Shown: positions 2,706 through 47,117 of the stretch, one piece after another
Numbering within the stretch: position 1 is the first letter of the stretch
Layout: each line of letters starts with the position of its first letter
Origin: Eledone cirrhosa
Lineage: Eukaryota
Direction: 5' to 3'
Assembly (NCBI GenBank): GCA_964016885.1
Contig: CAXHJY010000350.1
Span: forward strand, 1-47,675
Length of the DNA: 47,675 nt
Made by a program: the position numbers and the translations under genes
Notes under the pieces: model-generated
What the model was told of the DNA's origin: nothing
What the model saw: only the letters and a program-made list of their open reading frames with translations
Database searches by the model: none

Positions 2706-5280
<2,575 letters not shown>

Positions 5281-8943: not shown

Positions 8944-8991
8944 GTCAATGAATCAGTTCAGCCGAAGGATAAAATACAGACGAAACAAACT
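8944..8991 (+). CDS. Calmodulin-like gene, N-terminal extension exon (VNESVQPKDKIQTKQT)
   Basis: Acceptor ctttgtcccttag, donor act|gtaagt, 48 nt, phase 0/0, open frame joining the ATG exon to the 14033 exon. No homology support. Confidence 0.6.
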
Positions 8992-9064
8992 GTAAGTTAA
9001 ATGTTTTCACAGATTTTATTTAATTCTTTTTTTACTTTTACTTATTTGAGTCATTAGACCACGG

Positions 9065-13778: not shown

Positions 13779-13992
13779 TCGATCGACTTTCGTCAAATCG
13801 GACCGAGGAAACAATGTTTCCGTTGGTCTTTCCAGTTGCTAGTACTATCTATCGGTCGCAACTCCAGGTAGAAAGAGCAACGTGAAATAAAGTGTCTTGC
13901 TCAAGGACATAACGCATCGCCCGGTCCAGGAATCGAACGCACAACCTCAAGATTGGGAAGCCAATTCTCTAACCACTCAGCCACACGCCTTC
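13779..13992 (-). mobile_element. tRNA-derived SINE, third family (second copy at about 30469-30668)
   Basis: A near-identical block tcgatcgactttcgtcaaatcggaccgaggaaac...tgtcttgctcaaggac...ggaatcgaac...ctaaccactca occurs at both sites. It ends about 40 nt before the 14033 acceptor. Confidence 0.8.
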
Positions 13993-14032: not shown

Positions 14033-14072
14033 GAAAATATTCTCCAAAAGTATTCCGAATCTCAAGTTAAAG
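14033..14072 (+). CDS. Calmodulin-like gene exon (ENILQKYSESQVK-E), equivalent to calmodulin ADQLTEEQIA-E
   Basis: Long polypyrimidine acceptor (ttcttctctttctttttcttcag), donor aag|gtaaat, 40 nt. The phase 1 end supplies the G of the Glu codon completed at 15721; SESQVKE aligns with CaM TEEQIAE. Confidence 0.8.
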
Positions 14073-15720: not shown

Positions 15721-15864
15721 AACTTAAGGAGTCGTTCCGATTGTTTGACAAAGATGGCGATGGTTCAATATCTACAGAAGAATTACGTAAGGTACTCCGA
15801 GACTTGGGCCAGTATCCTTCAGTTGATGAAATACGACAGATGGTACAGGAGATCGATATTGATG
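15721..15864 (+). CDS. Calmodulin-like gene exon: EF-hand 1 and start of EF-hand 2 (ELKESFRLFDKDGDGSISTEELRKVLRDLGQYPSVDEIRQMVQEIDIDG)
   Basis: Acceptor ...aaatctag, donor atg|gtaagt. 144 nt, phase 1/1, the same size and boundaries as the equivalent calmodulin exon. Canonical loop DKDGDGSISTEE. Confidence 0.96.
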
Positions 15865-20424: not shown

Positions 20425-20878
20425 GTAAAGAATACGATCGCGAATACAAACGGCCGAAATGGGATTCCTCCGAAGGTTCTTTGGAGTAACGTTACTCGAT
20501 AAAGTGCATAGCTCGGAGTTCGGAGAATCACTTCAGGCAGAGCTGCTACTTCTCCGAATTGGGAGATCGCAGCTGCAAAACTATGGACATAAGGTAGAAT
20601 GTCTCAGGAAAGAATCGCTGGACAGATTTTACAGACAAAACCAACCAGTAAGAGATCCAGGGGTAGACCCCGAGCAAGATGGCTGGATGACATCCATGAG
20701 CTTGGCTAATCACGCTTGGAGGATCCAACCGGATCAATTGGAGACGGTTGCTTCTGACAGGACTTGTTGGAAGGAGAGTTTAAAGATTTTGCCCCCACGA
20801 CTCTCTCAGGAATAAGTGGACGAAGAAGAAGAAGAAGAAGAAGAAGAAGAAGAAGAAGAAGAAGAAGAAGAAGAAGAA
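20425..20878 (+). mobile_element. RTE-clade LINE 3' fragment with (GAA)n tail
   Basis: RSRIQTAEMGFLRR..GVTLLDKV..LLLRIGRSQL..YGH and, after a frameshift, KRSRGRPRARWLDDI, typical of an RTE ORF C-terminus. Stop at 20815, then (GAA)n. Confidence 0.85.
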
Positions 20879-22518: not shown

Positions 22519-22887
22519 TCATCTCTGTCTCATCTCTCTCTCTCTCTCTCCATCGATCCACCCCCTCTCTATCTATTAATCTCTCATTATCTTTCTTTCC
22601 TTCTATTTCTCTATAAATCTTACCAAAAAATGTTTATATTTATTTTTTATTTTTTTTTTTAAATTTATTCTTTTTACTTTTTTTCCAAAACATTTTGTCT
22701 CCTTCTTACATCATTTTCGAAAGATTATTTTCATCTCAGTGACATATAGAAGATATTAAATCTAATCTTTTAATTCACGGACTACATCTTATATATGTAA
22801 CCGAAGCAGACTGGGTCTTAAAACTGTCACTGTCATTCTGGTGTCAGTAACAATAAACTGCTAACTACTGGGGGGGGGGGGGGGGGC

Positions 22888-23590
22888 AGAGGTGTGACTT
22901 CACTGCTCAGCTAAGATGACACTGACTAACAGACTACTGAGGGCTAGAGGTGTGTTTTTACTGCTCAAGTAAGGTGACACTGACTAACAGACTACTGAGG
23001 GCTAGAGGTGTGTTTTTACTGCTCAGCTAAGGTGACACTGACTAACAGACTACTGAGGGCTAGAGGTGTGTTTTTACTGCTCAAGTAAGATGACACTGAC
23101 TAACAGACTACTGAGGGCTAGAGGTGTGTTTTTACTGCTCAGCTAAGGTGACACTGACTAACAGACTACTCAGGGCCAGTGGTGTGTTTTAACTGCTCAG
23201 GTAAGGTGACACTGACTAACAGACTACTCAGGGCCAGTGGTGTGTTTTAACTGCTCAGCTAAGGTGACACTGACTAACAGACTACTCAGGGCCAGTGGTG
23301 TGTTTTAACTGCTCAGGTAAGGTGACACTGACTAACAGACTACTCAGGGCCAGAGGTGTGTTTTTACTGCTCAACTAAGGTGACACTGACTAACAGACTA
23401 CTGAGAGCCAGAGGTGTGTTTTCACTGCTCAGCTAAGGTGACACTGACTAACAGACTACTGAGGGCTAGAGGTGTGTTTTTACTGCTCAGCTAAGGTGAC
23501 ACTGACTAACAAACCACTCAGGGCCAGTGGTGTGTCTTCACTGCTCAGGTAATGTGACACTGACTAACAAATAGCTGAAGGTCAGAGATG
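22888..23590. repeat. 58-bp minisatellite, about 12 copies
   Basis: Unit gaggtgtgtttttactgctcagctaaggtgacactgactaacagactactgagggcta; period measured from 22921 to 22979. Confidence 0.93.
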
Positions 23591-23591
23591 T

Positions 23592-23770
23592 GTTTTCATT
23601 GCCCAGCTAATAATCGACCCCAGTACTAGGCTGGTACTTTTTTTAATCAACCGCCAAAGGATTAATGGTAAAGTTGACCTCAGTGGGATTTGAACTCAGA
23701 ACACAGAACTAGAACAAAGACTGTAAAACATCCTATCCAATATTCTAACAACTCTGCCTATTCGCCGCCA
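23592..23770 (-). mobile_element. Degenerate main-family SINE
   Basis: atcgaccccagtac...aaagttgacctcagtgggatttgaactcaga...ctctgcctattcgccgcc. Confidence 0.7.
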
Positions 23771-26680: not shown

Positions 26681-26753
26681 GAGCCACGAATCAAACTCCC
26701 CTTATGATCATTAGCCGAAAGCCCTAACCAAAAAACCACAAACTTTCATTACA

Positions 26754-27130
26754 CAGGTAAAATTCCGTTATAACGAATACCATTATAACGAATTTTTCAG
26801 TATAACGAAATTTATTTTCAATCCCCGAGGTAATAACAAACAAACGGTTGATTTATTTCGGTCGATCTCGTTATAAAGAATTTTTTGTTACAACGAATTT
26901 TTTTCATACCTCGTGAATTTTGTTATAACAGAATTTCACTGTACAGGTAAACATCCGTTATAACGAATACCATTATAATGAATTTTCAGCATAACGAATT
27001 TTTTTTCAATCCCCGAGGTAATGACAATCAAACGCTCAATTTGTTTTGGTTGATCTCGTTATAAAGAATTTTTTGTTACAGCGAATTTATTTTTATACCC
27101 CGTGAATTTCGTTATGACGGAATTTCACTG
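26754..27130 (+). mobile_element. Tandem dimer of an approximately 180-bp TA-flanked MITE (Tc1/mariner-pogo type)
   Basis: TIRs caggtaaaattccgttataacgaa / ttcgttataacggaatttcactg. The two copies (26754-26941 and 26944-27130) share one TA. Confidence 0.85.
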
Positions 27131-27134
27131 TATT

Positions 27135-27576: not shown

Positions 27577-28282
27577 AATATTTTAAAGAGCATCTTCAGT
27601 AGGAAGAGCAAACAAAAATAATTAACAAATGCTGTGTTGACAGTTGTAGCAGAATAGCTCCCGCATATATATATTTGAATATAAATTTCTGCGACTCTAT
27701 CACAACACGTAAAGAGAGAGGAGTAGTTTGTCTACCTCATACTACTCCTCTCTCTTTACGTCTGTTACGTGTGTGAATGTATATGTGAATATAAAAGGAA
27801 GGAAGGAAGGAAGGAAGGGGATGGTGAAAAAACTACGCTGGGTGTGTGTGTGTGTGTGTGTATGTGTGTGTGTTTGTGTAAATGTATGTTTGTTTGAATG
27901 TATGTGTATTTTTCCAAAGTATGTCTGTGGGTGTATATTTTTCTAAGCGTGTCTGCGTTTGCATGTTTATATTTATATACTCACTAGCATTAAAGCCCGG
28001 CGTTGTTCGGGGTCAGTAAGTTACCAAAGTTAGGTTGCACCACCCATTTTATGGCAGCACTTTTTTGTCTGCCAGGCACTGGGTGAATGAATTGCAGACC
28101 TGGACTGCCGAAGCAGGAGCTGTGCCAGCAGTGACAATTGTAGTTTCGCCTATGGATATTATCTCTGTGCAAAGGAGTGTTGAAATTTATTGTTTCACAG
28201 TACTTGCGCAACACGCGCGTAGACGATGCCAGCCGAACAACAGAGCTGCGATGGAGTTGTTCTGCATGGTTGTCTAATGTGT

Positions 28283-28462
28283 GTTTTCTAAATTTAAGAC
28301 AGTAGGGAGGGGTGTGATATGGGGGAGAGTTAGCTGCTGTTTCTAGCAGTTTTAGTGACCTCATAGAGGATATGTTTTCTAAATTTAAGACAATAGGGAG
28401 TGGTGTGATATGGGGGAGAGTTAGCTGCTGTTTCTAGCAGGTTTAGTGACCTCATAGAGGAT
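28283..28462. repeat. Direct tandem duplication of about 90 bp (SINE-tail-like)
   Basis: tgttttctaaatttaagaca.taggga...gagagttagctgctgtttctagcag.tttagtgacctcatagaggata appears twice. Confidence 0.85.
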
Positions 28463-29299
28463 ATTATTGTGTATAGTAAATGAACTGATGCTTCTTTCTT
28501 CCACGTTCGTTGATAGATGTTTTAAAAAAGATTTATCGCTATTTTTTGTTGTTGTTGAATAAATTTATCTGTTGCTTTTGAATAATTGTTGTTTCGTATG
28601 AAATGTGATAAGTTCTCTTCGTTGTCATTGAAGTAAATAAATGTTTGACCGTTCCACACTCAAAAACAAACGTTCTCTCTCTCTCTCTCTTAAAGTTTGT
28701 AAGTTTAATCGTATATAAGAGAAAGTTGCAGCATGTATGTAGTTTTATCGAATTTTAAGAGGAGTAGAGAGAGGTAAACTGATTGTATTACAGGGGTAAA
28801 GCGTCATGTATTTAGTTTTATCGATTATTTCCGTAATTGTGGGTGAGTTTGAATGAAATAAATAGTCGTTGACCTAAGTTTGACCATTTACAACATTCTT
28901 ACAGACTTTGAGTCGAATCGGTTTGCAATTGTGCAAATGTATAAACATGGAACATGCACACACACACACACACACAACAACAACAATCTGCCTTTTATAG
29001 GTAATTGTTTCTACTTTTGGCACAATAATGATACATATAAATGTATGCATATGCACATACTCACACGCACGCACATATTCACATACTCGTCAGCTTATGG
29101 AAACAAATTCTAGTATTTGAATAGTTCGGGAATGTCCGTGACTGTACTCGTTCATCGCCGTATAAATTTGGAGCAATAATCTGCGATTAATTGCATATTT
29201 AGCTGAACCGGCGTTTCCATGCAACGACAAAGCTAATAGCCTCTCTATAACGACGATGACAACAACAACAACGACAACAACAAACAAGAAAAGGCACAA

Positions 29300-31419: not shown

Positions 31420-31529
31420 GTGACGGCAGGTTTTCATTTGAAGAATTTATTCAGTTTATGGAAAACATTGGAGGAATCACAGAAAACAAGGAAGGGGATG
31501 ATGATGAAGAATTGCGACAGGCATTTAAG
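31420..31529 (+). CDS. Calmodulin-like gene exon: end of EF-hand 2 and central linker (GDGRFSFEEFIQFMENIGGITENKEGDDDEELRQAFK)
   Basis: Acceptor acattccag, donor aag|gtaggt, 110 nt, phase 1/0. Completes the loop DIDGDGRFSFEE; EELRQAFK matches CaM EEIREAFR. Confidence 0.94.
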
Positions 31530-31597
31530 GTAGGTAAGGTTCAGATGAGTGGAGTATGGGTCATTAGAGTGGAGTAAGGTTTTGAGGGAGGAGAAGA

Positions 31598-32208
31598 CCA
31601 CTGGTGCAGCCAGTTGTTGGGGTGCCACTCTAGATGTGCCACTGGTGCAGCCAATCATTGGGGTGCCACAGTAGATATGCCACTGGTACAGCCAGTCGTT
31701 GGGGTGTCACAGTATGTGTGCCACTGGTGTAGCCAGTTGTTAGGGTGTCACACTAGATGTGCCACTGGTGCAGTCAGTCATTGGGGAGCCACACTAGATG
31801 TGCCACTGGTGCAGTCAGTCATTGGGGATCCACACTAGATGTGCCACTGGATCAGTCAGTCATTGGGGATCCACACTAGATGTGCCACTGGTGCAGTCAA
31901 TCGTTGGGATGTCACTCTAGATGTGCCACTGGTGCAGTCAGTCATTGGGGAGCCACACTAGATGTGCCACTGGTGTAGTCAGTCATTGGGGAGCCACTCT
32001 AGATGTGCCACTGGTGCAGTCAGTCGTTGGGATGTCACACTAGATGTGCCACTGGTGCAGTCAGTCATTGGGGAGCCACTCTAGATGTGCCACTGGTGCA
32101 GTCAGTCGTTGGGGAGCCACACTAGATGTGCCACTGGTGCAGTCAGTCGTTGGGATGTCACACTAGATGTGCCACTGGTGCAGTCAGTCGTTGGGGAGCC
32201 ACACTAGA
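31598..32208. repeat. 41-bp minisatellite, about 15 copies
   Basis: Unit ccactggtgcagtcagtcattggggagccacactagatgtg; period measured from 31598 to 31639. Confidence 0.93.
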
Positions 32209-32214
32209 TTTGTT

Positions 32215-32686
32215 CACAGTCAGTCATTTCCACTGGTCTCTATTCTCCGTCATGTGTAGAAAGGTTTCGATGTTGTGACCACTCCAGTCTTTGATGCTGT
32301 CGGACCAGAATTTTCTTTCATTGCTTCTCTTTCGACCTCCATCGACTGTGCTCTGAAGAATGGATTTAGACAAGGAGTTGTGACGAGATATATAACAATA
32401 CCAAGCAAGCTCCTGTCTTTTCACCATCGCAAGAGGTGGTTCCTGTCTGCCAGCATATTTGTTAACTTGTTGCCTGACAAAGCTGTTTGTTTTGTATTCC
32501 GTGAATGGGATGTGTAGCAACGTTCTAAAGCACTTGAGTTCGAATGATTGGATCCTTCATTCCATGTCTGTTGTGAGGGTCCAGCTCCCGCACCCATGTA
32601 AAAGGATCAAAGTCACCAAGGACTTGTATAGTTTGAGATTCGTTGGGAAACTGACGGTGCTGCTTTTCCATATGACTTTCAGCTTT
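32215..32686 (-). mobile_element. RTE-clade LINE remnant, part downstream of the satellite
   Basis: Minus-strand translation AKLKVIWKSSTVSFPTNLKLYKSLVTLILLHGCGSWTL...RIQSFELKCFRTLLHI...LAWYCYISRHNSLSKSILQSTVDGGRKR...W...RDQWK, an RTE post-RT domain with a premature stop. Confidence 0.9.
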
Positions 32687-35600
32687 GCCATGGCAGAAGT
32701 GGCCATGGCAGAAGTGGCCATGGCAGAAGTGGCCATGGCAGAAGTGGCCATGGCAGAAGTGGTCATGGCAGAAGTGGCCATGGCAGAAGTGGCCATGGCA
32801 GAAGTGGCCATGGCAGAAGTAGCCATGGTAGAAGTGGCCATGGCAGAAGTGGCCATGGCAGAAGTAGCCATGGTAGAAGTGGCCATGGCAGAAGTGGCCA
32901 TGGCAGAAGTGGCCATGGCAGAAGTGGCCATGGCAGAAGTGGCCATGGCAGAAGTAGCCATGGTAGAAGTGGCCATGGCAGAAGTGGCTAAGGCAGAAGT
33001 GGCCATGGCAGAAGTGGCCATGGCAGAAGTGGCCATGGCAGAAGTGGCCATGGCAGAAGTAGCCATGGTAGAAGTGGCCATGGCAGAAGTGGCCATGGCA
33101 GAAGTGGTCATGGCAGAAGTGGCCATGGCAGAAGTGGCCATGGCAGAAGTGGCCATGGCAGAAGTAGCCATGGTAGAAGTGGCCATGGCAGAAGTAGCCA
33201 TGGCAGAAGTGGCCATGGCAGAAGTGGCCATGGCAGAAGTGGCCATGGCAGAAGTGGCCATGGCAGAAGTGGCCATGGCAGAAGTGGCCATGGCAGAAGT
33301 AGCCATGGTAGAAGTGGCCATGGCAGAAGTGGCCATGGCAGAAGTGGCCATGGCAAAAGTGGCCATGGCAGAAGTGGCCATGGCAGAAGTGGTCATGGCA
33401 GAAGTGGCCATGGCAGAAGTGGCCATGGCAGAAGTAGCCATGGTAGAAGTGGCCATGGCAGAAGTGGCCATGGCAGAAGTGGCCATGGCAAAAGTGGCCA
33501 TGGCAGAAGTGGCCATGGCAAAAGTGGCCATGGCAGAAGTAGCCATGGCAGAAGTGGCCATGGCAGAAGTGGCCATGGCAGAAGTGGCCATGGCAGAAGT
33601 GGCCATGGCAGAAGTGGCCATGGCAGAAGTGGCTAAGGCAGAAGTGGCCATGGCAGAAGTGGCCATGGCAGAAGTGGCCATGGCAGAAGTGGCCATGGCA
33701 GAAGTGGCATGGCAGAAGTGGCTAAGGCAGAAGTGGCCATGGCAGAAGTGGCCATGGCAGAAGTGGCATGGCAGAAGTGGCCATGGCAGAAGTAGCCATG
33801 GCAGAAGTAGCCATGGTAGAAGTGGTCATGGCAGAAGTGGCCATGGCAGAAGTGGCCATGGCAGAAGTAGCCATGGCAGAAGTGGCCATGGCAGAAGTGG
33901 CTAAGGCAGAAGTGGCCATGGCAGAAGTGGCTAAGGCAGAAGTGGCCATGGCAGAAGTGGCTAAGGCAGAAGTGGCCATGGCAGAAGTGGCCATGGCAGA
34001 AGTGGCCATGGCAGAAGTGGCCATGGCAGAAGTGGCCATGGCAGAAGTGGCCATGGCAGAAGTAGCCATGGCAGAAGTGGCCATGGCAGAAGTGGCCATG
34101 GCAGAAGTGGCCATGGCAGAAGTAGCCATGGTAGAAGTGGCCATGGCAGAAGTAGCCATGGCAGAAGTGGCCATGGCAGAAGTGGTCATGGCAGAAGTGG
34201 CCATGGCAGAAGTGGCATGGCAGAAGTGGCTAAGGCAGAAGTGGCCATGGCAGAAGTGGCTAAGGCAGAAGTGGCCATGGCAGAAGTGGCTAAGGCAGAA
34301 GTGGCCATGGCAGAAGTGGCCATGGCAGAAGTGGCATGGCAGAAGTGGCCATGGCAGAAGTGGCTAAGGCAGAAGTGGCATGGCAGAAGTGGCATGGCAG
34401 AAGTGGCCATGGCAGAAGTGGCTAAGGCAGAAGTGGCCATGGCAGAAGTGGCCATGGCAGAGGTGGCCATGGCAGAAGTGGTCATGGCAGAAGTGGCCAT
34501 GGCAGAAGTAGCCATGGCAGAAGTGGCCATGGCAGAAGTGGCATGGCAGAAGTGGCATGGCAGAAGTGGCATGGCAGAAGTGGTCATGGCAGAAGTGGCC
34601 ATGGCAGAAGTAGCCATGGCAGAAGTGGCCATGGCAGAAGTGGCATGGCAGAAGTGGCCATGGCAGAAGTGGCCATGGCAGAAGTGGCATGGCAGAAGTG
34701 GCCATGGCAGAAGTGGCATGGCAGAAGTGGCCATGGCAGAAGTGGCCATGGCAGAAGTGGCCATGGCAGAAGTAGCCATGGCAGAAGTGGCCATGGCAGA
34801 AGTAGCCATGGCAGAAGTAGCCATGGCAGAAGTGGCCATGGCAGAAGTAGCCATGGCAGAAGTGGCCATGGCAGAAGTAGCCATGGCAGAAGTAGCTAAG
34901 GCAGAAGTGGCCATGGCAGAAGTGGCCATGGCAGAAGTGGCTAAGGCAGAAGTGGCATGGCAGAAGTGGCTAAGGCAGAAGTGGCCATGGCAGAAGTGGC
35001 ATGGCAGAAGTGGCTAAGGCAGAAGTGGCCATGGCAGAAGTGGCTAAGGCAGAAGTGGCATGGCAGAAGTGGCTAAGGCAGAAGTGGCCATGGCAGAAGT
35101 GGCATGGCAGAAGTGGCTAAGGCAGAAGTGGCCATGGCAGAAGTGGCTAAGGCAGAAGTGGCCATGGCAGAAGTGGCATGGCAGAAGTGGCTAAGGCAGA
35201 AGTGGCCATGGCAGAAGTGGCCATGGCAGAAGTGGCCATGGCAGAAGTGGCCATGGCAGAAGTGGCCATGGCAGAAGTGGCCATGGCAGAAGTGGCCATG
35301 GCAGAAGTGGCCATGGCAGAAGTAGCCATGGCAGAAGTGGCTAAGGCAGAAGTGGCCATGGCAGAAGTGGCATGGCAGAAGTGGCCATGGCAGAAGTGGC
35401 CATGGCAGAAGTGGCATGGCAGAAGTGGCCATGGCAGAAGTGGCATGGCAGAAGTGGCCATGGCAGAAGTGGCATGGCAGAAGTGGCCATGGCAGAAGTG
35501 GCCATGGCAGAAGTGGCCATGGCAGAAGTGGCCATGGCAGAAGTGGCTAAGGCAGAAGTGGTCATGGCAGAAGTGGCATGGCAGAAGTGGCCATGGCAGA

Positions 35601-38600
35601 AGTGGCCATGGCAGAAGTGGCATGGCAGAAGTGGCCATGGCAGAAGTGGCCATGGCAGAAGTGGCCATGGCAGAAGTGGCCATGGCAGAAGTGGCCATGG
35701 CAGAAGTGGCCATGGCAGAAGTGGCCATGGCAGAAGTGGCCATGGCAGAAGTGGCCATGGCAGAAGTGGCCATGGCAGAAGTAGCCATGGCAGAAGTGGC
35801 TAAGGCAGAAGTGGCCATGGCAGAAGTGGCATGGCAGAAGTGGCTAAGGCAGAAGTGGCATGGCAGAAGTGGCCATGGCAGAAGTGGCTAAGGCAGAAGT
35901 GGCCATGGCAGAAGTGGCATGGCAGAAGTGGCCATGGCAGAAGTGGCCATGGCAGAAGTGGCTAAGGCAGAAGTGGCCATGGCAGAAGTGGCATGGCAGA
36001 AGTGGCTAAGGCAGAAGTGGCATGGCAGAAGTGGCTAAGGCAGAAGTGGCCATGGCAGAAGTGGCATGGCAGAAGTGGCTAAGGCAGAAGTGGCCATGGC
36101 AGAAGTGGCTAAGGCAGAAGTGGCCATGGCAGAAGTGGCATGGCAGAAGTGGCCATGGCAGAAGTGGCTAAGGCAGAAGTGGCATGGCAGAAGTGGCTAA
36201 GGCAGAAGTGGCCATGGCAGAAGTGGCATGGCAGAAGTGGCTAAGGCAGAAGTGGCCATGGCAGAAGTGGCTAAGGCAGAAGTGGCCATGGCAGAAGTGG
36301 CATGGCAGAAGTGGCTAAGGCAGAAGTGGCCATGGCAGAAGTGGCATGGCAGAAGTGGCCATGGCAGAAGTGGCTAAGGCAGAAGTGGCATGGCAGAAGT
36401 GGCTAAGGCAGAAGTGGCCATGGCAGAAGTGGCATGGCAGAAGTGGCTAAGGCAGAAGTGGCCATGGCAGAAGTGGCATGGCAGAAGTGGCCATGGCAGA
36501 AGTGGCCATGGCAGAAGTGGCCATGGCAGAAGTGGCCATGGCAGAAGTGGCCATGGCAGAAGTGGCCATGGCAGAAGTGGCTAAGGCAGAAGTGGCCATG
36601 GCAGAAGTGGCATGGCAGAAGTGGCTAAGGCAGAAGTGGCATGGCAGAAGTGGCCATGGCAGAAGTGGCCATGGCAGAAGTGGCATGGCAGAAGTGGCTA
36701 AGGCAGAAGTGGCATGGCAGAAGTGGCCATGGCAGAAGTGGCCATGGCAGAAGTAGCCATGGCAGAAGTGGCCATGGCAGAAGTAGCCATGGCAGAAGTA
36801 GCCATGGCAGAAGTGGCCATGGCAGAAGTAGCCATGGCAGAAGTAGCCATGGCAGAAGTGGCCATGGCAGAAGTAGCCATGGCAGAAGTGGCTAAGGCAG
36901 AAGTGGCCATGGCAGAAGTGGCCATGGCAGAAGTGGCCATGGCAGAAGTGGCCATGGCAGAAGTGGCTAAGGCAGAAGTGGCCATGGCAGAAGTGGCCAT
37001 GGCAGAAGTGGCATGGCAGAAGTGGCCATGGCAGAAGTGGCCATGGCAGAAGTAGCCATGGCAGAAGTGGCTAAGGCAGAAGTGGCCATGGCAGAAGTGG
37101 CCATGGCAGAAGTGGCATGGCAGAAGTGGCCATGGCAGAAGTGGCCATGGCAGAAGTAGCCATGGCAGAAGTGGCTAAGGCAGAAGTGGCCATGGCAGAA
37201 GTGGCATGGCAGAAGTGGCTAAGGCAGAAGTGGCCATGGCAGAAGTGGCATGGCAGAAGTGGCTAAGGCAGAAGTGGCCATGGCAGAAGTGGCTAAGGCA
37301 GAAGTGGCCATGGCAGAAGTGGCATGGCAGAAGTGGCTAAGGCAGAAGTGGCCATGGCAGAAGTGGCATGGCAGAAGTGGCCATGGCAGAAGTGGCTAAG
37401 GCAGAAGTGGCATGGCAGAAGTGGCTAAGGCAGAAGTGGCCATGGCAGAAGTGGCATGGCAGAAGTGGCTAAGGCAGAAGTGGCCATGGCAGAAGTGGCA
37501 TGGCAGAAGTGGCCATGGCAGAAGTGGCCATGGCAGAAGTGGCCATGGCAGAAGTGGCTAAGGCAGAAGTGGCCATGGCAGAAGTGGCATGGCAGAAGTG
37601 GCCATGGCAGAAGTAGCCATGGCAGAAGTGGCCATGGCAGAAGTGGCCATGGCAGAAGTGGCCATGGCAGAAGTGGCTAAGGCAGAAGTGGCCATGGCAG
37701 AAGTGGCCATGGCAGAAGTAGCCATGGCAGAAGTGGCCATGGCAGAAGTAGCCATGGCAGAAGTGGCCATGGCAGAAGTGGCTAAGGCAGAAGTGGCCAT
37801 GGCAGAAGTGGCCATGGCAGAAGTGGCCATGGCAGAAGTGGCCATGGCAGAAGTAGCCATGGCAGAAGTGGCCATGGCAGAAGTAGCCATGGCAGAAGTG
37901 GCCATGGCAGAAGTGGCCATGGCAGAAGTGGCCATGGCAGAAGTGGCCATGGCAGAAGTGGCCATGGCAGAAGTGGCCATGGCAGAAGTGGCCATGGCAG
38001 AAGTGGTCATGGCAGAAGTAGCCATGGCAGAAGTGGTCATGGCAGAAGTAGCCATGGCAGAAGTGGTCATGGCAGAAGTGGCCATGGCAGAAGTGGCTAA
38101 GGCAGAAGTGGCCATGGCAGAAGTGGCCATGGCAGAAGTGGCCATGGCAGAAGTGGCCATGGCAGAAGTGGCCATGGCAGAAGTGGCCATGGCAGAAGTG
38201 GCCATGGCAGAAGTGGCCATGGCAGAAGTGGCCATGGCAGAAGTGGTCATGGCAGAAGTAGCCATGGCAGAAGTGGTCATGGCAGAAGTAGCCATGGCAG
38301 AAGTGGTCATGGCAGAAGTGGCTAAGGCAGAAGTGGCCATGGCAGAAGTGGCCATGGCAGAAGTAGCCATGGCAGAAGTGGCCATGGCAGAAGTGGCCAT
38401 GGCAGAAGTGGCCATGGCAGAAGTGGCCATGGCAGAAGTGGCCATGGCAGAAGTGGCCATGGCAGAAGTGGCCATGGCAGAAGTGGCCATGGCAGAAGTG
38501 GTCATGGCAGAAGTAGCCATGGCAGAAGTGGTCATGGCAGAAGTAGCCATGGCAGAAGTGGTCATGGCAGAAGTGGCTAAGGCAGAAGTGGCCATGGCAG

Positions 38601-41600
38601 AAGTGGCCATGGCAGAAGTAGCCATGGCAGAAGTGGCCATGGCAGAAGTAGCCATGGCAGAAGTAGCCATGGCAGAAGTGGCCATGGCAGAAGTGGCATG
38701 GCAGAAGTGGCCATGGCAGAAGTGGCTAAGGCAGAAGTGGCCATGGCAGAAGTGGCCATGGCAGAAGTGGCCATGGCAGAAGTGGCATGGCAGAAGTGGC
38801 CATGGCAGAAGTGGCCATGGCAGAAGTGGCCATGGCAGAAGTGGCATGGCAGAAGTGGCCATGGCAGAAGTGGCCATGGCAGAAGTGGCCATGGCAGAAG
38901 TGGCTAAGGCAGAAGTGGTCATGGCAGAAGTAGCCATGGCAGAAGTGGTCATGGCAGAAGTGGCCATGGCAGAAGTAGCCATGGCAGAAGTGGCCATGGC
39001 AGAAGTGGCATGGCAGAAGTGGCCATGGCAGAAGTGGCCATGGCAGAAGTAGCCATGGCAGAAGTGGCCATGGCAGAAGTGGCCATGGCAGAAGTAGCCA
39101 TGGCAGAAGTGGCCATGGCAGAAGTGGCCATGGCAGAAGTGGCCATGGCAGAAGTGGCCATGGCAGAAGTGGCCATGGCAGAAGTGGCTAAGGCAGAAGT
39201 AGCCATGGCAGAAGTGGCCATGGCAGAAGTGGCCATGGCAGAAGTGGCTAAGGCAGAAGTGGCCATGGCAGAAGTGGCCATGGCAGAAGTGGCCATGGCA
39301 GAAGTGGCCATGGCAGAAGTGGCCATGGCAGAAGTGGCCATGGCAGAAGTGGCTAAGGCAGAAGTGGCCATGGCAGAAGTGGCCATGGCAGAAGTGGCCA
39401 TGGCAGAAGTAGCCATGGCAGAAGTGGCTAAGGCAGAAGTGGCATGGCAGAAGTGGCATGGCAGAAGTGGCCATGGCAGAAGTGGCCATGGCAGAAGTGG
39501 CTAAGGCAGAAGTGGCCATGGCAGAAGTGGCTAAGGCAGAAGTAGCCATGGCAGAAGTGGCCATGGCAGAAGTGGCCATGGCAGAAGTGGCTAAGGCAGA
39601 AGTGGCCATGGCAGAAGTGGCCATGGCAGAAGTGGCTAAGGCAGAAGTGGCCATGGCAGAAGTGGCCATGGCAGAAGTGGCCATGGCAGAAGTGGCCATG
39701 GCAGAAGTGGCTAAGGCAGAAGTGGCATGGCAGAAGTGGTCATGGCAGAAGTGGCCATGGCAGAAGTGGCTAAGGCAGAAGTGGCCATGGCAGAAGTGGC
39801 CATGGCAGAAGTAGCCATGGCAGAAGTAGCCATGGCAGAAGTGGCCATGGCAGAAGTGGCCATGGCAGAAGTAGCCATGGCAGAAGTGGCCATGGCAGAA
39901 GTGGCCATGGCAGAAGTAGCCATGGCAGAAGTGGCTAAGGCAGAAGTGGCATGGCAGAAGTGGCCATGGCAGAAGTGGCCATGGCAGAAGTGGCCATGGC
40001 AGAAGTAGCCATGGCAGAAGTGGCCATGGCAGAAGTGGCATGGCAGAAGTAGCCATGGCAGAAGTGGCCATGGCAGAAGTGGCATGGCAGAAGTGGCCAT
40101 GGCAGAAGTAGCCATGGCAGAAGTGGCCATGGCAGAAGTGGCCATGGCAGAAGTGGCTAAGGCAGAAGTGGCATGGCAGAAGTGGCCATGGCAGAAGTGG
40201 CCATGGCAGAAGTGGCCATGGCAGAAGTGGCCATGGCAGAAGTGGCCATGGCAGAAGTGGCCATGGCAGAAGTGGCTAAGGCAGAAGTAGCCATGGCAGA
40301 AGTGGCCATGGCAGAAGTGGCCATGGCAGAAGTAGCCATGGCAGAAGTGGCTAAGGCAGAAGTAGCCATGGCAGAAGTGGCCATGGCAGAAGTAGCCATG
40401 GCAGAAGTGGCCATGGCAGAAGTGGCCATGGCAGAAGTAGCCATGGCAGAAGTGGCTAAGGCAGAAGTAGCCATGGCAGAAGTGGCCATGGCAGAAGTGG
40501 CCATGGCAGAAGTAGCCATGGCAGAAGTGGCTAAGGCAGAAGTGGCATGGCAGAAGTGGCCATGGCAGAAGTGGCCATGGCAGAAGTGGCCATGGCAGAA
40601 GTGGCCATGGCAGAAGTGGCCATGGCAGAAGTAGCCATGGCAGAAGTGGCTAAGGCAGAAGTAGCCATGGCAGAAGTGGCCATGGCAGAAGTAGCCATGG
40701 CAGAAGTGGCCATGGCAGAAGTGGCCATGGCAGAAGTAGCCATGGCAGAAGTGGCCATGGCAGAAGTAGCCATGGCAGAAGTGGCCATGGCAGAAGTGGC
40801 CATGGCAGAAGTAGCCATGGCAGAAGTGGCTAAGGCAGAAGTGGCATGGCAGAAGTGGCCATGGCAGAAGTGGCCATGGCAGAAGTGGCCATGGCAGAAG
40901 TGGCCATGGCAGAAGTAGCCATGGCAGAAGTGGCTAAGGCAGAAGTAGCCATGGCAGAAGTGGCCATGGCAGAAGTAGCCATGGCAGAAGTGGCCATGGC
41001 AGAAGTGGCCATGGCAGAAGTAGCCATGGCAGAAGTGGCTAAGGCAGAAGTGGCATGGCAGAAGTGGCCATGGCAGAAGTGGCCATGGCAGAAGTGGCCA
41101 TGGCAGAAGTAGCCATGGCAGAAGTAGCCATGGCAGAAGTAGCCATGGCAGAAGTGGCCATGGCAGAAGTGGCCATGGCAGAAGTGGCCATGGCAGAAGT
41201 AGCCATGGCAGAAGTGGCCATGGCAGAAGTGGCCATGGCAGAAGTAGCCATGGCAGAAGTGGCCATGGCAGAAGTGGCCATGGCAGAAGTAGCCATGGCA
41301 GAAGTGGCTAAGGCAGAAGTGGCCATGGCAGAAGTGGCCATGGCAGAAGTAGCCATGGCAGAAGTGGCCATGGCAGAAGTGGCCATGGCAGAAGTAGCCA
41401 TGGCAGAAGTGGCCATGGCAGAAGTGGCCATGGCAGAAGTAGCTAAGGCAGAAGTGGCCATGGCAGAAGTGGCTAAGGCAGAAGTGGCCATGGCAGAAGT
41501 GGCCATGGCAGAAGTGGCTAAGGCAGAAGTGGCCATGGCAGAAGTGGCATGGCAGAAGTGGCTAAGGCAGAAGTGGCCATGGCAGAAGTAGCTAAGGCAG

Positions 41601-44409
41601 AAGTGGCCATGGCAGAAGTAGCCATGGCAGAAGTGGCTAAGGCAGAAGTGGCCATGGCAGAAGTGGCCATGGCAGAAGTAGCCATGGCAGAAGTGGCCAT
41701 GGCAGAAGTGGCCATGGCAGAAGTAGCCATGGCAGAAGTGGCCATGGCAGAAGTGGCCATGGCAGAAGTGGCTAAGGCAGAAGTGGCCATGGCAGAAGTG
41801 GCTAAGGCAGAAGTGGCCATGGCAGAAGTGGCCATGGCAGAAGTGGCTAAGGCAGAAGTGGCCATGGCAGAAGTGGCATGGCAGAAGTGGCCATGGCAGA
41901 AGTGGCTAAGGCAGAAGTGGCCATGGCAGAAGTGGCTAAGGCAGAAGTGGCCATGGCAGAAGTGGCCATGGCAGAAGTAGCCATGGCAGAAGTGGCCATG
42001 GCAGAAGTGGCCATGGCAGAAGTGGCTAAGGCAGAAGTGGCCATGGCAGAAGTGGCCATGGCAGAAGTAGCCATGGCAGAAGTGGCCATGGCAGAAGTAG
42101 CCATGGCAGAAGTGGCCATGGCAGAAGTGGCTAAGGCAGAAGTGGCCATGGCAGAAGTGGCTAAGGCAGAAGTGGCCATGGCAGAAGTAGCCATGGCAGA
42201 AGTGGCCATGGCAGAAGTAGCCATGGCAGAAGTGGCCATGGCAGAAGTGGCCATGGCAGAAGTGGCCATGGCAGAAGTAGCCATGGCAGAAGTGGCCATG
42301 GCAGAAGTGGCCATGGCAGAAGTGGCCATGGCAGAAGTGGCCATGGCAGAAGTAGCCATGGCAGAAGTGGCCATGGCAGAAGTGGCCATGGCAGAAGTGG
42401 CCATGGCAGAAGTGGCTAAGGCAGAAGTGGCCATGGCAGAAGTGGCCATGGCAGAAGTAGCCATGGCAGAAGTGGCCATGGCAGAAGTAGCCATGGCAGA
42501 AGTGGCCATGGCAGAAGTGGCTAAGGCAGAAGTGGCCATGGCAGAAGTAGCCATGGCAGAAGTGGCCATGGCAGAAGTGGCTAAGGCAGAAGTGGCCATG
42601 GCAGAAGTAGCCATGGCAGAAGTGGCCATGGCAGAAGTAGCCATGGCAGAAGTGGCCATGGCAGAAGTGGCCATGGCAGAAGTGGCCATGGCAGAAGTAG
42701 CCATGGCAGAAGTGGCCATGGCAGAAGTGGCCATGGCAGAAGTGGCTAAGGCAGAAGTGGCCATGGCAGAAGTAGCCATGGCAGAAGTGGCCATGGCAGA
42801 AGTGGCCATGGCAGAAGTAGCCATGGCAGAAGTGGCCATGGCAGAAGTGGCCATGGCAGAAGTGGCCATGGCAGAAGTAGCCATGGCAGAAGTGGCCATG
42901 GCAGAAGTGGCCATGGCAGAAGTGGCCATGGCAGAAGTAGCCATGGCAGAAGTGGCTAGGGCAGAAGTGGCCATGGCAGAAGTGGCCATGGCAGAAGTAG
43001 CCATGGCAGAAGTGGCCATGGCAGAAGTAGCCATGGCAGAAGTGGCCATGGCAGAAGTAGCCATGGCAGAAGTGGCTAAGGCAGAAGTGGCCATGGTAGA
43101 AGTGGCCATGGCAGAAGTGGCCATGGCAGAAGTAGCTAAGGCAGAAGTGACATGGCAGAAGTGGCCATGGCAGAAGTGGTCATGGCAGAAGTGACATGGC
43201 AGAAGTGGTCATGGCAGAAGTGACATGGCAGAAGTGGTCATGGCAGAAGTGGCCATGGCAGAAGTAGCCATGGCAGAAGTAGCCATGGCAGAAGTGGCCA
43301 TGGCAGAAGTGGCCATGGCAGAAGTGGCCATGGCAGAAGTGGCCATGGCAGAAGTAGCCATGGCAGAAGTAGCCATGGCAGAAGTGGCCATGGCAGAAGT
43401 GGCCATGGCAGAAGTGGCTAAGGCAGAAGTAGCCATGGCAGAAGTGGCCATGGCAGAAGTAGCTAAGGCAGAAGTAGCCATGGCAGAAGTAGCCATGGCA
43501 GAAGTGGCCATGGCAGAAGTGGTCATGGCAGAAGTGGCCATGGCAGAAGTGGCCATGGCAGAAGTAGCCATGGCAGAAGTAGCCATGGCAGAAGTGGCCA
43601 TGGCAGAAGTGGCCATGGCAGAAGTGGCTAAGGCAGAAGTAGCCATGGCAGAAGTGGCCATGGCAGAAGTGGCCATGGCAGAAGTGGCCATGGCAGAAGT
43701 AGCCATGGCAGAAGTGGCCATGGCAGAAGTGGCCATGGCAGAAGTGGCCATGGCAGAAGTGGCTAAGGCAGAAGTGGCCATGGCAGAAGTGGCTAAGGCA
43801 GAAGTAGCCATGGCAGAAGTGGCCATGGCAGAAGTGGCCATGGCAGAAGTAGCCATGGCAGAAGTGGCCATGGCAGAAGTGGCCATGGCAGAAGTGGCCA
43901 TGGCAGAAGTGGCCATGGCAGAAGTGGCCATGGCAGAAGTGGCTAAGGCAGAAGTGGCCAAGGCAGAAGTGGCTAAGGCAGAAGTAGCCCATGGCAGAAG
44001 TGGCCATGGCAGAAGTGCATGGCAGAAGTGGCATGGCAGAAGTGGCATGGCAGAAGTGGCCATGGCAGAAGTGCCATGCAGAAGTGCATGCAGAAGTGGC
44101 ATGGCAGAGTGGCATGCAGAAGTGGCATGCAGAAGTAGCCATGGCAGAAGTGGCCATGGCAGAAGTGGCCATGGCAGAAGTGGCGCATGGCAGAAGTAGC
44201 CATGGCAGAAGTGGCCAGGCAGAAGTGGCCATGGCAGAAGTGGCCATGGCAGAAGTTGCATGGCAGAAGTGGCCATGGCAGAAGTGGCATGGCAAAAGTG
44301 GCCATGGCAGAAGTAGCCATGCAGAAGTGGCCATGCAGAAGTGGCCATGGCAGAAGTGGCCATGTCAGAAGTGGCCTTGGCAAAAGTGGCCATGGCAGAA
44401 GTGGTCATG
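32687..44409. repeat. 11.7 kb tandem array of the 15-bp unit GCCATGGCAGAAGTG (roughly 780-790 units)
   Basis: Directly visible. Recurrent variants are GTAGCC, GCTAAGG, GTCATGG, ATGGTAG and a 14-bp unit (GGCATGG). Confidence 0.99.
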
Positions 44410-44470
44410 ATAAATCTTGTTAGTATCTTCCTTTTGAGATCTGGCGTCTTTGTCCAGAGTGGACACCTTC
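44410..44470 (-). mobile_element. RTE-clade LINE remnant, part upstream of the satellite
   Basis: Minus strand reads STLDKDARSQKE(frameshift)ILTRFIMTTSAM, the segment expected before MATSAMAKL in RTE ORFs. Confidence 0.65.
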
Positions 44471-44524
44471 TATACTGTTCCATTACTCCCATCTTCTATG
44501 TTTCCCCTTCTATTACTGTTGCAG

Positions 44525-44615
44525 ATGTTCGATAAAAGTGGTACTGGGTACATCTGTGCATCTGACTTGCGAGTTGTGATACAGTGTTTAGGGGAAGACT
44601 TGACCGAAGAAGAAA
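44525..44615 (+). CDS. Calmodulin-like gene exon: EF-hand 3 (MFDKSGTGYICASDLRVVIQCLGEDLTEEE); gene continues past this exon
   Basis: Acceptor ttctattactgttgcag, donor aaa|gtaagt, 91 nt, phase 0/1. Aligns with CaM [30 protein letters not shown]. Confidence 0.94.
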
Positions 44616-46100: not shown

Positions 46101-46517
46101 GAGAGTAAAACAAAGAATCCTTTAATACATCAAAAGTTTTTATTAGCCGACAAAACTTTTGATGTATTAAAGGATTCTTTGTTTTACTCTCTTAATTTTT
46201 TGGCTCTGTTTAACTGTATTGAGCTATACCTTTTACTGTCATTTCTATAATACGAAGAGGGTGTTTGACTCAAACACGCTCCAGTATTCTAATCCTTATA
46301 TATATATATATATAGGAACGAGTAGGACCCCCGACGGCTGAGCTCAAGCCGTTTCGACGGCTAATTCTGGACCAGAATTTGGTCCAGAATTAGCCGTCGA
46401 AACGGCTTGAGCTCTGCCGTCGGGGTCCTACTCGTTCCTATTACCCACTCTACTACCCTAAGTATTGAGTACTTTGGTGCGTTATGGTCCACTTGGTTCC
46501 TTACCACATTTCCTTCG

Positions 46518-46875: not shown

Positions 46876-47045
46876 ACTATAATTCTGGACTAAAATATAG
46901 TCATTTTAGTTCAGAATTAACCGTCGAAACGGCTTGATCTCAGCCGTCGGGGTCCTACTCGTACCTATTACCCACTCTACTACCCTAAGTATTGAGTACT
47001 TTGGTGCGTTATGGTTCATCTGGTTCCTTACCATATTTCCTTCGT
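46096..47045 (+). mobile_element. Cluster of fold-back Penelope-like remnants between (TA)n tracts
   Basis: Inverted repeats at 46096-46140/46152-46196 and 46312-46374/46380-46441. The latter and a second copy at about 46872-47045 carry the 3' half of a hammerhead (GAA-ACGGCT...AGCCGT-C-ggggtcc). Confidence 0.55.
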
Positions 47046-47076
<31 letters not shown>

Positions 47077-47117
47077 GTAATAAACGAAAGATATATACTT
47101 TATATCATCTCTATTTA

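Follow-up and report, generated by a model that had tools for sequence, protein, structure and literature searches.

The window analysed here (the whole stretch of DNA, 47,675 bp long and without a single N) carries on its plus strand part of a neo-calmodulin-like gene that is conserved in octopods. Three exons, namely an earlier EF-hand exon at 15721..15864, a second at 31420..31529 and another EF-hand exon at 44525..44615, have canonical splice sites and matching phases, and they align to consecutive parts of the public protein P0061 with 46 of 47, 35 of 36 and 30 of 30 residues identical, respectively. P0061 is the neo-calmodulin of Octopus bimaculoides, and its cluster also includes proteins of O. 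vulgaris, O. sinensis and Argonauta hians. Two residues differ in the window, at positions where all five public proteins agree with one another, so the window probably comes from a further octopod. The gene spans at least 29 kb here, with weak hits at about 8944-8997 and 14033-14070, while a search of the window did not turn up its last exon. A degenerate (TA)n tract of 2.5 kb with about 10% GC (2775-5279) also lies inside the host gene region.

The exons at 31420-31529 and 44525-44615 are contiguous in P0061, and in the window they are separated by a plus-strand GT-AG intron of phase 0 (31530..44524; 12,995 bp). A LINE remnant and two tandem arrays, all antisense to the gene, fill 99% of this intron (31598-44463, 12,866 bp), and an array of 15-bp units makes up 90% of it. 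The DNA resembling host intron amounts to about 129 bp, 68 bp of it next to the donor site and 61 bp next to the acceptor, and the LINE with each array reduced to one unit measures 593 bp. A simple motif scan of the array's sense strand found neither a GTRAG donor nor a pyrimidine-tract acceptor. A search for a target-site duplication strictly outside the LINE element yielded no shared 7-mer. The same 8-mer is present close to either end of the insertion, at 31566-31573 and 44456-44463; it is a possible target-site duplication, but it overlaps LINE codons and is within chance expectation (about 0.07).

The 15-bp array occupies 32687..44408 on the minus strand, and its unit corresponds to the codons M-A-T-S-A of the LINE ORF. 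Tandem Repeats Finder, run on the window, reported a period of 15 with 787.4 copies and 92% matches at 32687-44409. A wrap-around parse of the minus strand from 44408 down to 32692 gave 787 full units followed by a 5-bp partial unit, a length taken from the assembly. The original prediction, made from the sequence alone, had proposed that one 15-mer was amplified about 780-fold with a boundary at 44409; both the copy number and the extent hold in the assembled sequence, with the start corrected to 44408. Perfect units number 426 of 787, and seven variants (124, 103, 70, 24, 9, 5 and 5 copies) account for most of the imperfect ones. The enzyme NcoI, expected to shred the array, has 567 predicted cuts in it, and RsaI, HinfI and MboI have none. 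The plus-strand unit contains GGCAGA, and 10-bp pieces of the unit had no match in the window outside the array. A coding role for the array was considered and ruled out, as 86 of the 787 units have a length other than 15 bp, the ORF contains stops and the array is antisense within an intron.

Sequence comparison identifies the element hosting the array as a decayed, 5'-truncated copy of an RTE-like LINE, a label that we take from the domain layout of its relatives and from C-terminal motifs. On the upstream side lies the 5' end of the truncated copy (44409..44463, minus strand). Its 18 or so codons contain one frameshift and line up in register with the stretch ahead of the motif in intact relatives. 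On the downstream side (32210..32686, minus strand), the C-terminal 160 or so codons of the ORF follow, interrupted by two in-frame stops. The 54 bp of the upstream flank (44463-44410) and the approximately 480 bp of the downstream flank match consecutive residues of intact APE-RT proteins. Translation thus reproduced the predicted entry of LINE coding sequence into the array and its resumption in register beyond it, apart from the upstream frameshift. The downstream translation (179 aa, with X at the two TGA stops) matched the C-termini of six RT or APE-RT proteins of 708-1021 aa (9 hits among 181 candidates), with 47-55% identity over 97-99% of its length. Both of the closest full-length relatives scanned (1017-1021 aa) contain AP endonuclease and RT domains (Exo_endo_phos and RVT_1), while the copy in the window consists of the last 190 or so codons only, and the RT domain is absent from it. 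The relatives looked up included no named reference elements.

The 3' UTR of RTE-clade LINEs is very short and built of simple repeats. Here, the end of the LINE ORF passes into a second array, of 41-bp units, beyond which no simple-repeat tail is visible. RTE-clade elements are described as encoding both an AP endonuclease and an RT domain in one ORF (PMC2887409), and RTE-BovB has been reported as expanded in cephalopods (PMC10294476). With one homologue, an alignment reaching upstream as far as 44523 scored 43, where shuffles peaked at 39, but such a continuation of the LINE was rejected because this stretch is the host acceptor tract. Elsewhere in the window, at 20430-20730 on the plus strand, a more decayed second fragment weakly resembles these RT proteins at their C-terminus (E 0.004-0.3). 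It adjoins a 95-bp repeat of 2.5 copies, and sequences similar to the unit of that repeat are dispersed at 13800 and 30500.

Twenty-three protein relatives were fetched, and 16 of them span the motif with at least 10 upstream residues. In all 16, a single [MIL]-A-x-x-x unit follows a K-E-I-x-x-R-type stretch, as had been expected of intact relatives, and the 15-bp unit corresponds to the conserved motif [MIL]-A-T-[SA]-A of this RT protein family. In three of the 16 homologues an A precedes the M (A-M-A-T). At the DNA level, family copies aligned to 32170-32770 comprised 371 contigs in run X1 and 194, 121 and 71 reads in runs X2-X4, mostly with 80-90% identity to the window. In none of the four runs did they give any depth over 32716-32770. 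One family contig, of 2,063 bp, matched at 32386-32709 and continued beyond the match; therefore, the family copies have one unit. As the four runs share at most 0.07 of the locus words and are probably from other species, the absence of the array from them says little about this genome. In addition, tandem repeats can be lost through contig filters. A search for related loci in metagenomes returned 3 of 26 stretches, all distant, one of which (L003) is without the motif region.

The 41-bp array (31598..32209, minus strand; 14.9 copies, 88% matches) starts within the final codons of the ORF in this LINE copy, and these codons align with the C-terminus of the relatives. Run X1 contains four contigs with the tandem joint at 32209 and eight with matching loose ends, and its depth is raised over the 41-bp unit, even though this run appears to be without the locus studied here; the 15-mer was not seen in tandem in any of the four runs. 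The 41-bp array may therefore be older than the 15-bp array, or it may be carried by a LINE subfamily.

As the 41-bp joints show that arrays of this LINE family exist elsewhere, the 15-bp unit might itself belong to a dispersed family, first duplicated in another LINE copy or subfamily and inherited, or gene-converted, into this locus as a short array; the locus would then be one member of that family and not the birthplace of the array. RTE elements are also reported to make short repeats at their 3' ends, and to spread them, by slippage during retrotransposition (PMC2887409). However, this explanation is improbable in our judgement. No record with two or more tandem 15-bp units was found in any of runs X1-X4, two tandem units had no match in metagenome contigs, and the translated array matched none of three candidate proteins as a protein repeat; all three are weak tests, the first sampling what are probably other species and the other two not sampling this one. 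The lack of a 10-bp match elsewhere in the window points the same way, again weakly, and the variant structure described below indicates mostly local growth under either explanation.

Several other tandem repeats were observed in the window. A 58-bp array of 12.6 copies (22883-23610; 91% matches) lies between a G run, which precedes it, and a dispersed repeat present about 15 times in the window. At 26753-27132, 188 bp of a dispersed element with four other window copies is tandemly duplicated, and at 28282-28464 there is a tandem duplication of 91 bp. The two duplications and the other arrays suggest that repeats in this genome often undergo tandem duplication. Inspection by eye also showed a fragment of a dispersed repeat that is duplicated in inverted orientation near 46330-46420 (46356-46413 and 46960-47080), with a near-copy of that fragment about 540 bp away.

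Within the 15-bp array, the variants are inherited. After unit 35, a 14-bp form was present in 67 of 483 consensus-type units as against 0 of 122 T-type units (p 1.5e-7), so that this variant is heritable and not a random error. The distribution of three of the seven variants over the array is uneven (KS p of 0.001 or lower), and blocks of variants recur exactly, with 24 units at lag 69 and 18 at lag 17, while five shuffles reached 10-12. A regular higher-order period was sought and dropped, as no lag stands out. One rare variant is confined to units 2, 8, 732, 734 and 743, which suggests that the array grew from the middle. Slippage or unequal exchange, as originally proposed, fits these clustered and locally duplicated variants.

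The first 35 or so units (43900..44408, minus strand) are divergent edge units with scattered single-base indels absent from the rest of the array. Thirteen of these indels are at sites never hit in the other 752 units. This edge may reflect read error, great age or both, and the assembly may therefore be weak here. The resemblance of these indels to unpolished read error, and the fact that the array length is known from the assembly rather than from spanning reads, leave some room for a real array of the wrong length, either a shorter one inflated or a longer one collapsed by noisy long-read assembly. We regard this as very improbable, since the variant string has no exact repeat beyond 24 units (360 bp), meaning that no large block was duplicated by the assembler and that inflation is unlikely; this argument counters inflation, not collapse. 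In addition, the inheritance and clustering of the variants speak against an artefact of assembly, the variant frequencies shift along the array, and there is no N gap.

The upstream flank is short, and its assignment was examined with a profile. Anchored at the junction with one frameshift allowed, it scored 22.7 against a control maximum of 17.2, and none of 23,796 control window positions reached its score. The profile had 19 columns from 13 homologues, with the number of columns and the frameshift penalty chosen after the alignment had been viewed. Without anchoring, only 2 of 12 homologues gave the flank a score above those of all 15 shuffles. The idea that a foreign satellite was inserted into the LINE, or that two unrelated fragments flank the array by chance, can draw on the shortness and frameshift of this flank, but it is largely refuted and scarcely credible given that the flank outscores every control position and that the unit is a conserved motif of the protein family. 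The unit is thus the element's own sequence, as the original prediction had it.

The LINE copy is old. More than 70% of the X1 family depth stood against the window in at least 24 rows, among the 40 listed of 182 difference rows, so its divergence is at least about 5% of 481 bp, to which subfamily differences may contribute. A published calibration equates 0.09 substitutions per site with 25 million years (PMC13282606). As an order-of-magnitude estimate, the LINE would have inserted roughly 14 million years ago or more. The array body (752 units, 11,210 bp) contains 3 singleton unit types, and its turnover, again to an order of magnitude, may have taken about 0.1 million years or less, an age based on singletons, which polishing and gene conversion both erase. 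As the LINE copy is old and broken, whereas private mutations are almost absent from the array body, the array probably did most of its growing well after the LINE had inserted. The locus therefore records a late or continuing expansion in an old LINE fossil, rather than the birth of an array of which the original prediction had seen a snapshot.

The 15-bp unit is bounded by the 8-mer GCCATGGC, which encodes A-M-A and is a palindrome. Because the bounding repeat is also palindromic, the array is predicted to form hairpins. For ten units, folding predictions give stems of 8 bp closed by loops of 7 nt, both for either DNA strand and for RNA. Eight copies of the unit fold at -33 kcal/mol. Repeated eight times, 8 out of 300 shuffled versions of the unit and 9 out of 461 15-mers from the flank are as stable, which places the unit in the top 2-3% of fold stability. 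Fold stability was judged by this shuffled-unit control and not by z-scores against dinucleotide shuffles (-7.7 to -9.0), because the latter are overstated for a tandem repeat. The four commonest unit variants (32687-44408) are all altered in the first six bases, the site of the palindromes, though these changes stem from few independent events.

The microhomology ATGGC, originally proposed as bounding the unit, is present at the downstream junction and inside the array and is missing from the upstream junction. The latter reads ATC-ATG-ACC, with 4 bp shared and no palindrome, and the 8-bp repeat lies at the downstream junction. That the ancestral LINE had a pair of 8-bp repeats is inferred from the one contig that reaches 32709 and from the three homologues with A-M-A-T. 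Speaking against such a seed are the present upstream junction and a second pair of direct 8-bp repeats in the flank, which are spaced 30 bp apart and did not expand.

Most likely, five codons of an antisense intronic LINE were repeated in place, in an array that was seeded by slippage and enlarged long after the insertion. We propose that: about 0.6 kb of the 3' end of a LINE would have inserted into an intron of about 130 bp; the codons for A-M-A-T-S-A-M-A would have put GCCATGGC twice into this sequence, 15 bp apart; the 8-mer would have provided both a slip register and an 8-bp stem with a 7-nt loop, so that the looped-out strand was stabilised and a first duplication favoured; and a single slippage between the two 8-mers, aided by the hairpin and occurring either in the chromosome or during reverse transcription, would have been that first duplication. 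Further growth, seen in variants that are inherited in blocks and locally duplicated, would have come from repeated events of slippage and unequal exchange, each involving between 1 and about 70 units, with the array built mostly from its middle. The array is probably functionless, and it might persist because it spared the pyrimidine tract and the two splice sites.

A bolder version of this proposal would treat the codons of the conserved RTE motif A-M-A-T-S-A-M-A, which carry a repeat both direct and palindromic, as a built-in hotspot, from which RTE fossils of octopods repeatedly and independently spawn the array, with the locus still unstable and polymorphic in length. We consider this doubtful. 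If it were true, an intron of about 130 bp in a conserved calcium-sensor gene would have been enlarged 100-fold by an unstable array, and most of the array's units would have been replaced over approximately the past 100,000 years. As the LINE family has many copies, the idea of a hairpin hotspot can be tested across them, and the eight common unit variants provide a barcode for tracing mutation of the array.

Returning to in-place repetition of the five codons, the parent sequence survives on both sides of the array and the host exons mark its outer limits, so the states before and after are readable: an intron of about 129 bp before insertion and about 720 bp after it, as inferred, and 12,995 bp now. 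The locus illustrates one route of intron growth in octopods, and it reveals no new mechanism and no function. A literature search that covered few subscription journals found no report of the 15-bp unit, of the locus or of an array derived from an RTE ORF in cephalopods.

Minisatellites derived from Alu, B1 and MaLR elements are known, and in the model of Haber and Louis (1998) such TE-derived minisatellites are seeded between direct repeats of 5-10 bp and then expand (PMC6947457). The array described here is alike in that a TE-internal unit is probably bounded by a short direct repeat and slippage or unequal crossover and expansion are invoked; in keeping with the Haber-Louis criteria, TE sequence lies on both sides of the unit, and other family copies have a single one. 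However, the unit here comes from the coding part of an RTE-like LINE, its bounding repeat is also a palindrome, and the array lies in an intron of a mollusc host. Moreover, the array has 787 units, as compared to roughly 100 given for minisatellites in PMC6947457. In the mouse, Ms6-hm arose from a MaLR LTR and (GGCAGA)n from a B1 SINE (PMC9659126, PMC6947457). Like the present array, both are long arrays of a short unit inside a retroelement remnant, and GGCAGA also occurs in the plus-strand unit here, although the unit here is 15 bp rather than 5-6 bp and comes from a LINE ORF rather than an LTR or a SINE. The Ms6-hm and (GGCAGA)n loci are hypermutable, a property that goes with a high rate of length mutation in the germline and with length polymorphism; the indicators of instability here are indirect, namely block duplications of recent date and the presence of 3 singleton unit types among 752 units.

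A satellite DNA family has many long arrays, takes up a sizeable share of the genome and is usually heterochromatic, and most claims of TE-to-satellite conversion are based on monomer similarity. The array described here lies in a gene intron, and the word satellite in the original prediction, if taken to mean a genome-wide family, says more than the evidence from this locus supports. Satellites from the ORF2 or 3' end of LINEs have been described as chicken HinfI/CR1, Phodopus PROsat/L1 and the cetacean L1 satellite (PMC9659126). These are likewise tandem repeats of LINE sequence, coding parts included, but they are genome-wide and were recognised by monomer similarity, whereas here both flanks survive in codon register at the locus described. 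The satellites of Lathyrus sativus derived from Ogre elements are described as arrays that lie within retroelements and at times grow to many kb (PMC7004042), and the present one resembles them in being within a retroelement and at the kb scale. In contrast to our locus, where the relatives have one unit and the array is intronic, the short array of Ogre is reported to pre-exist in the LTR element family and to expand mainly at centromeres (PMC7004042). TE-seeded minisatellites are thus already known, and the one described here is unusual in its size and clarity; what makes it notable is its size, its preserved codon register, its intronic setting and its palindromic seed.
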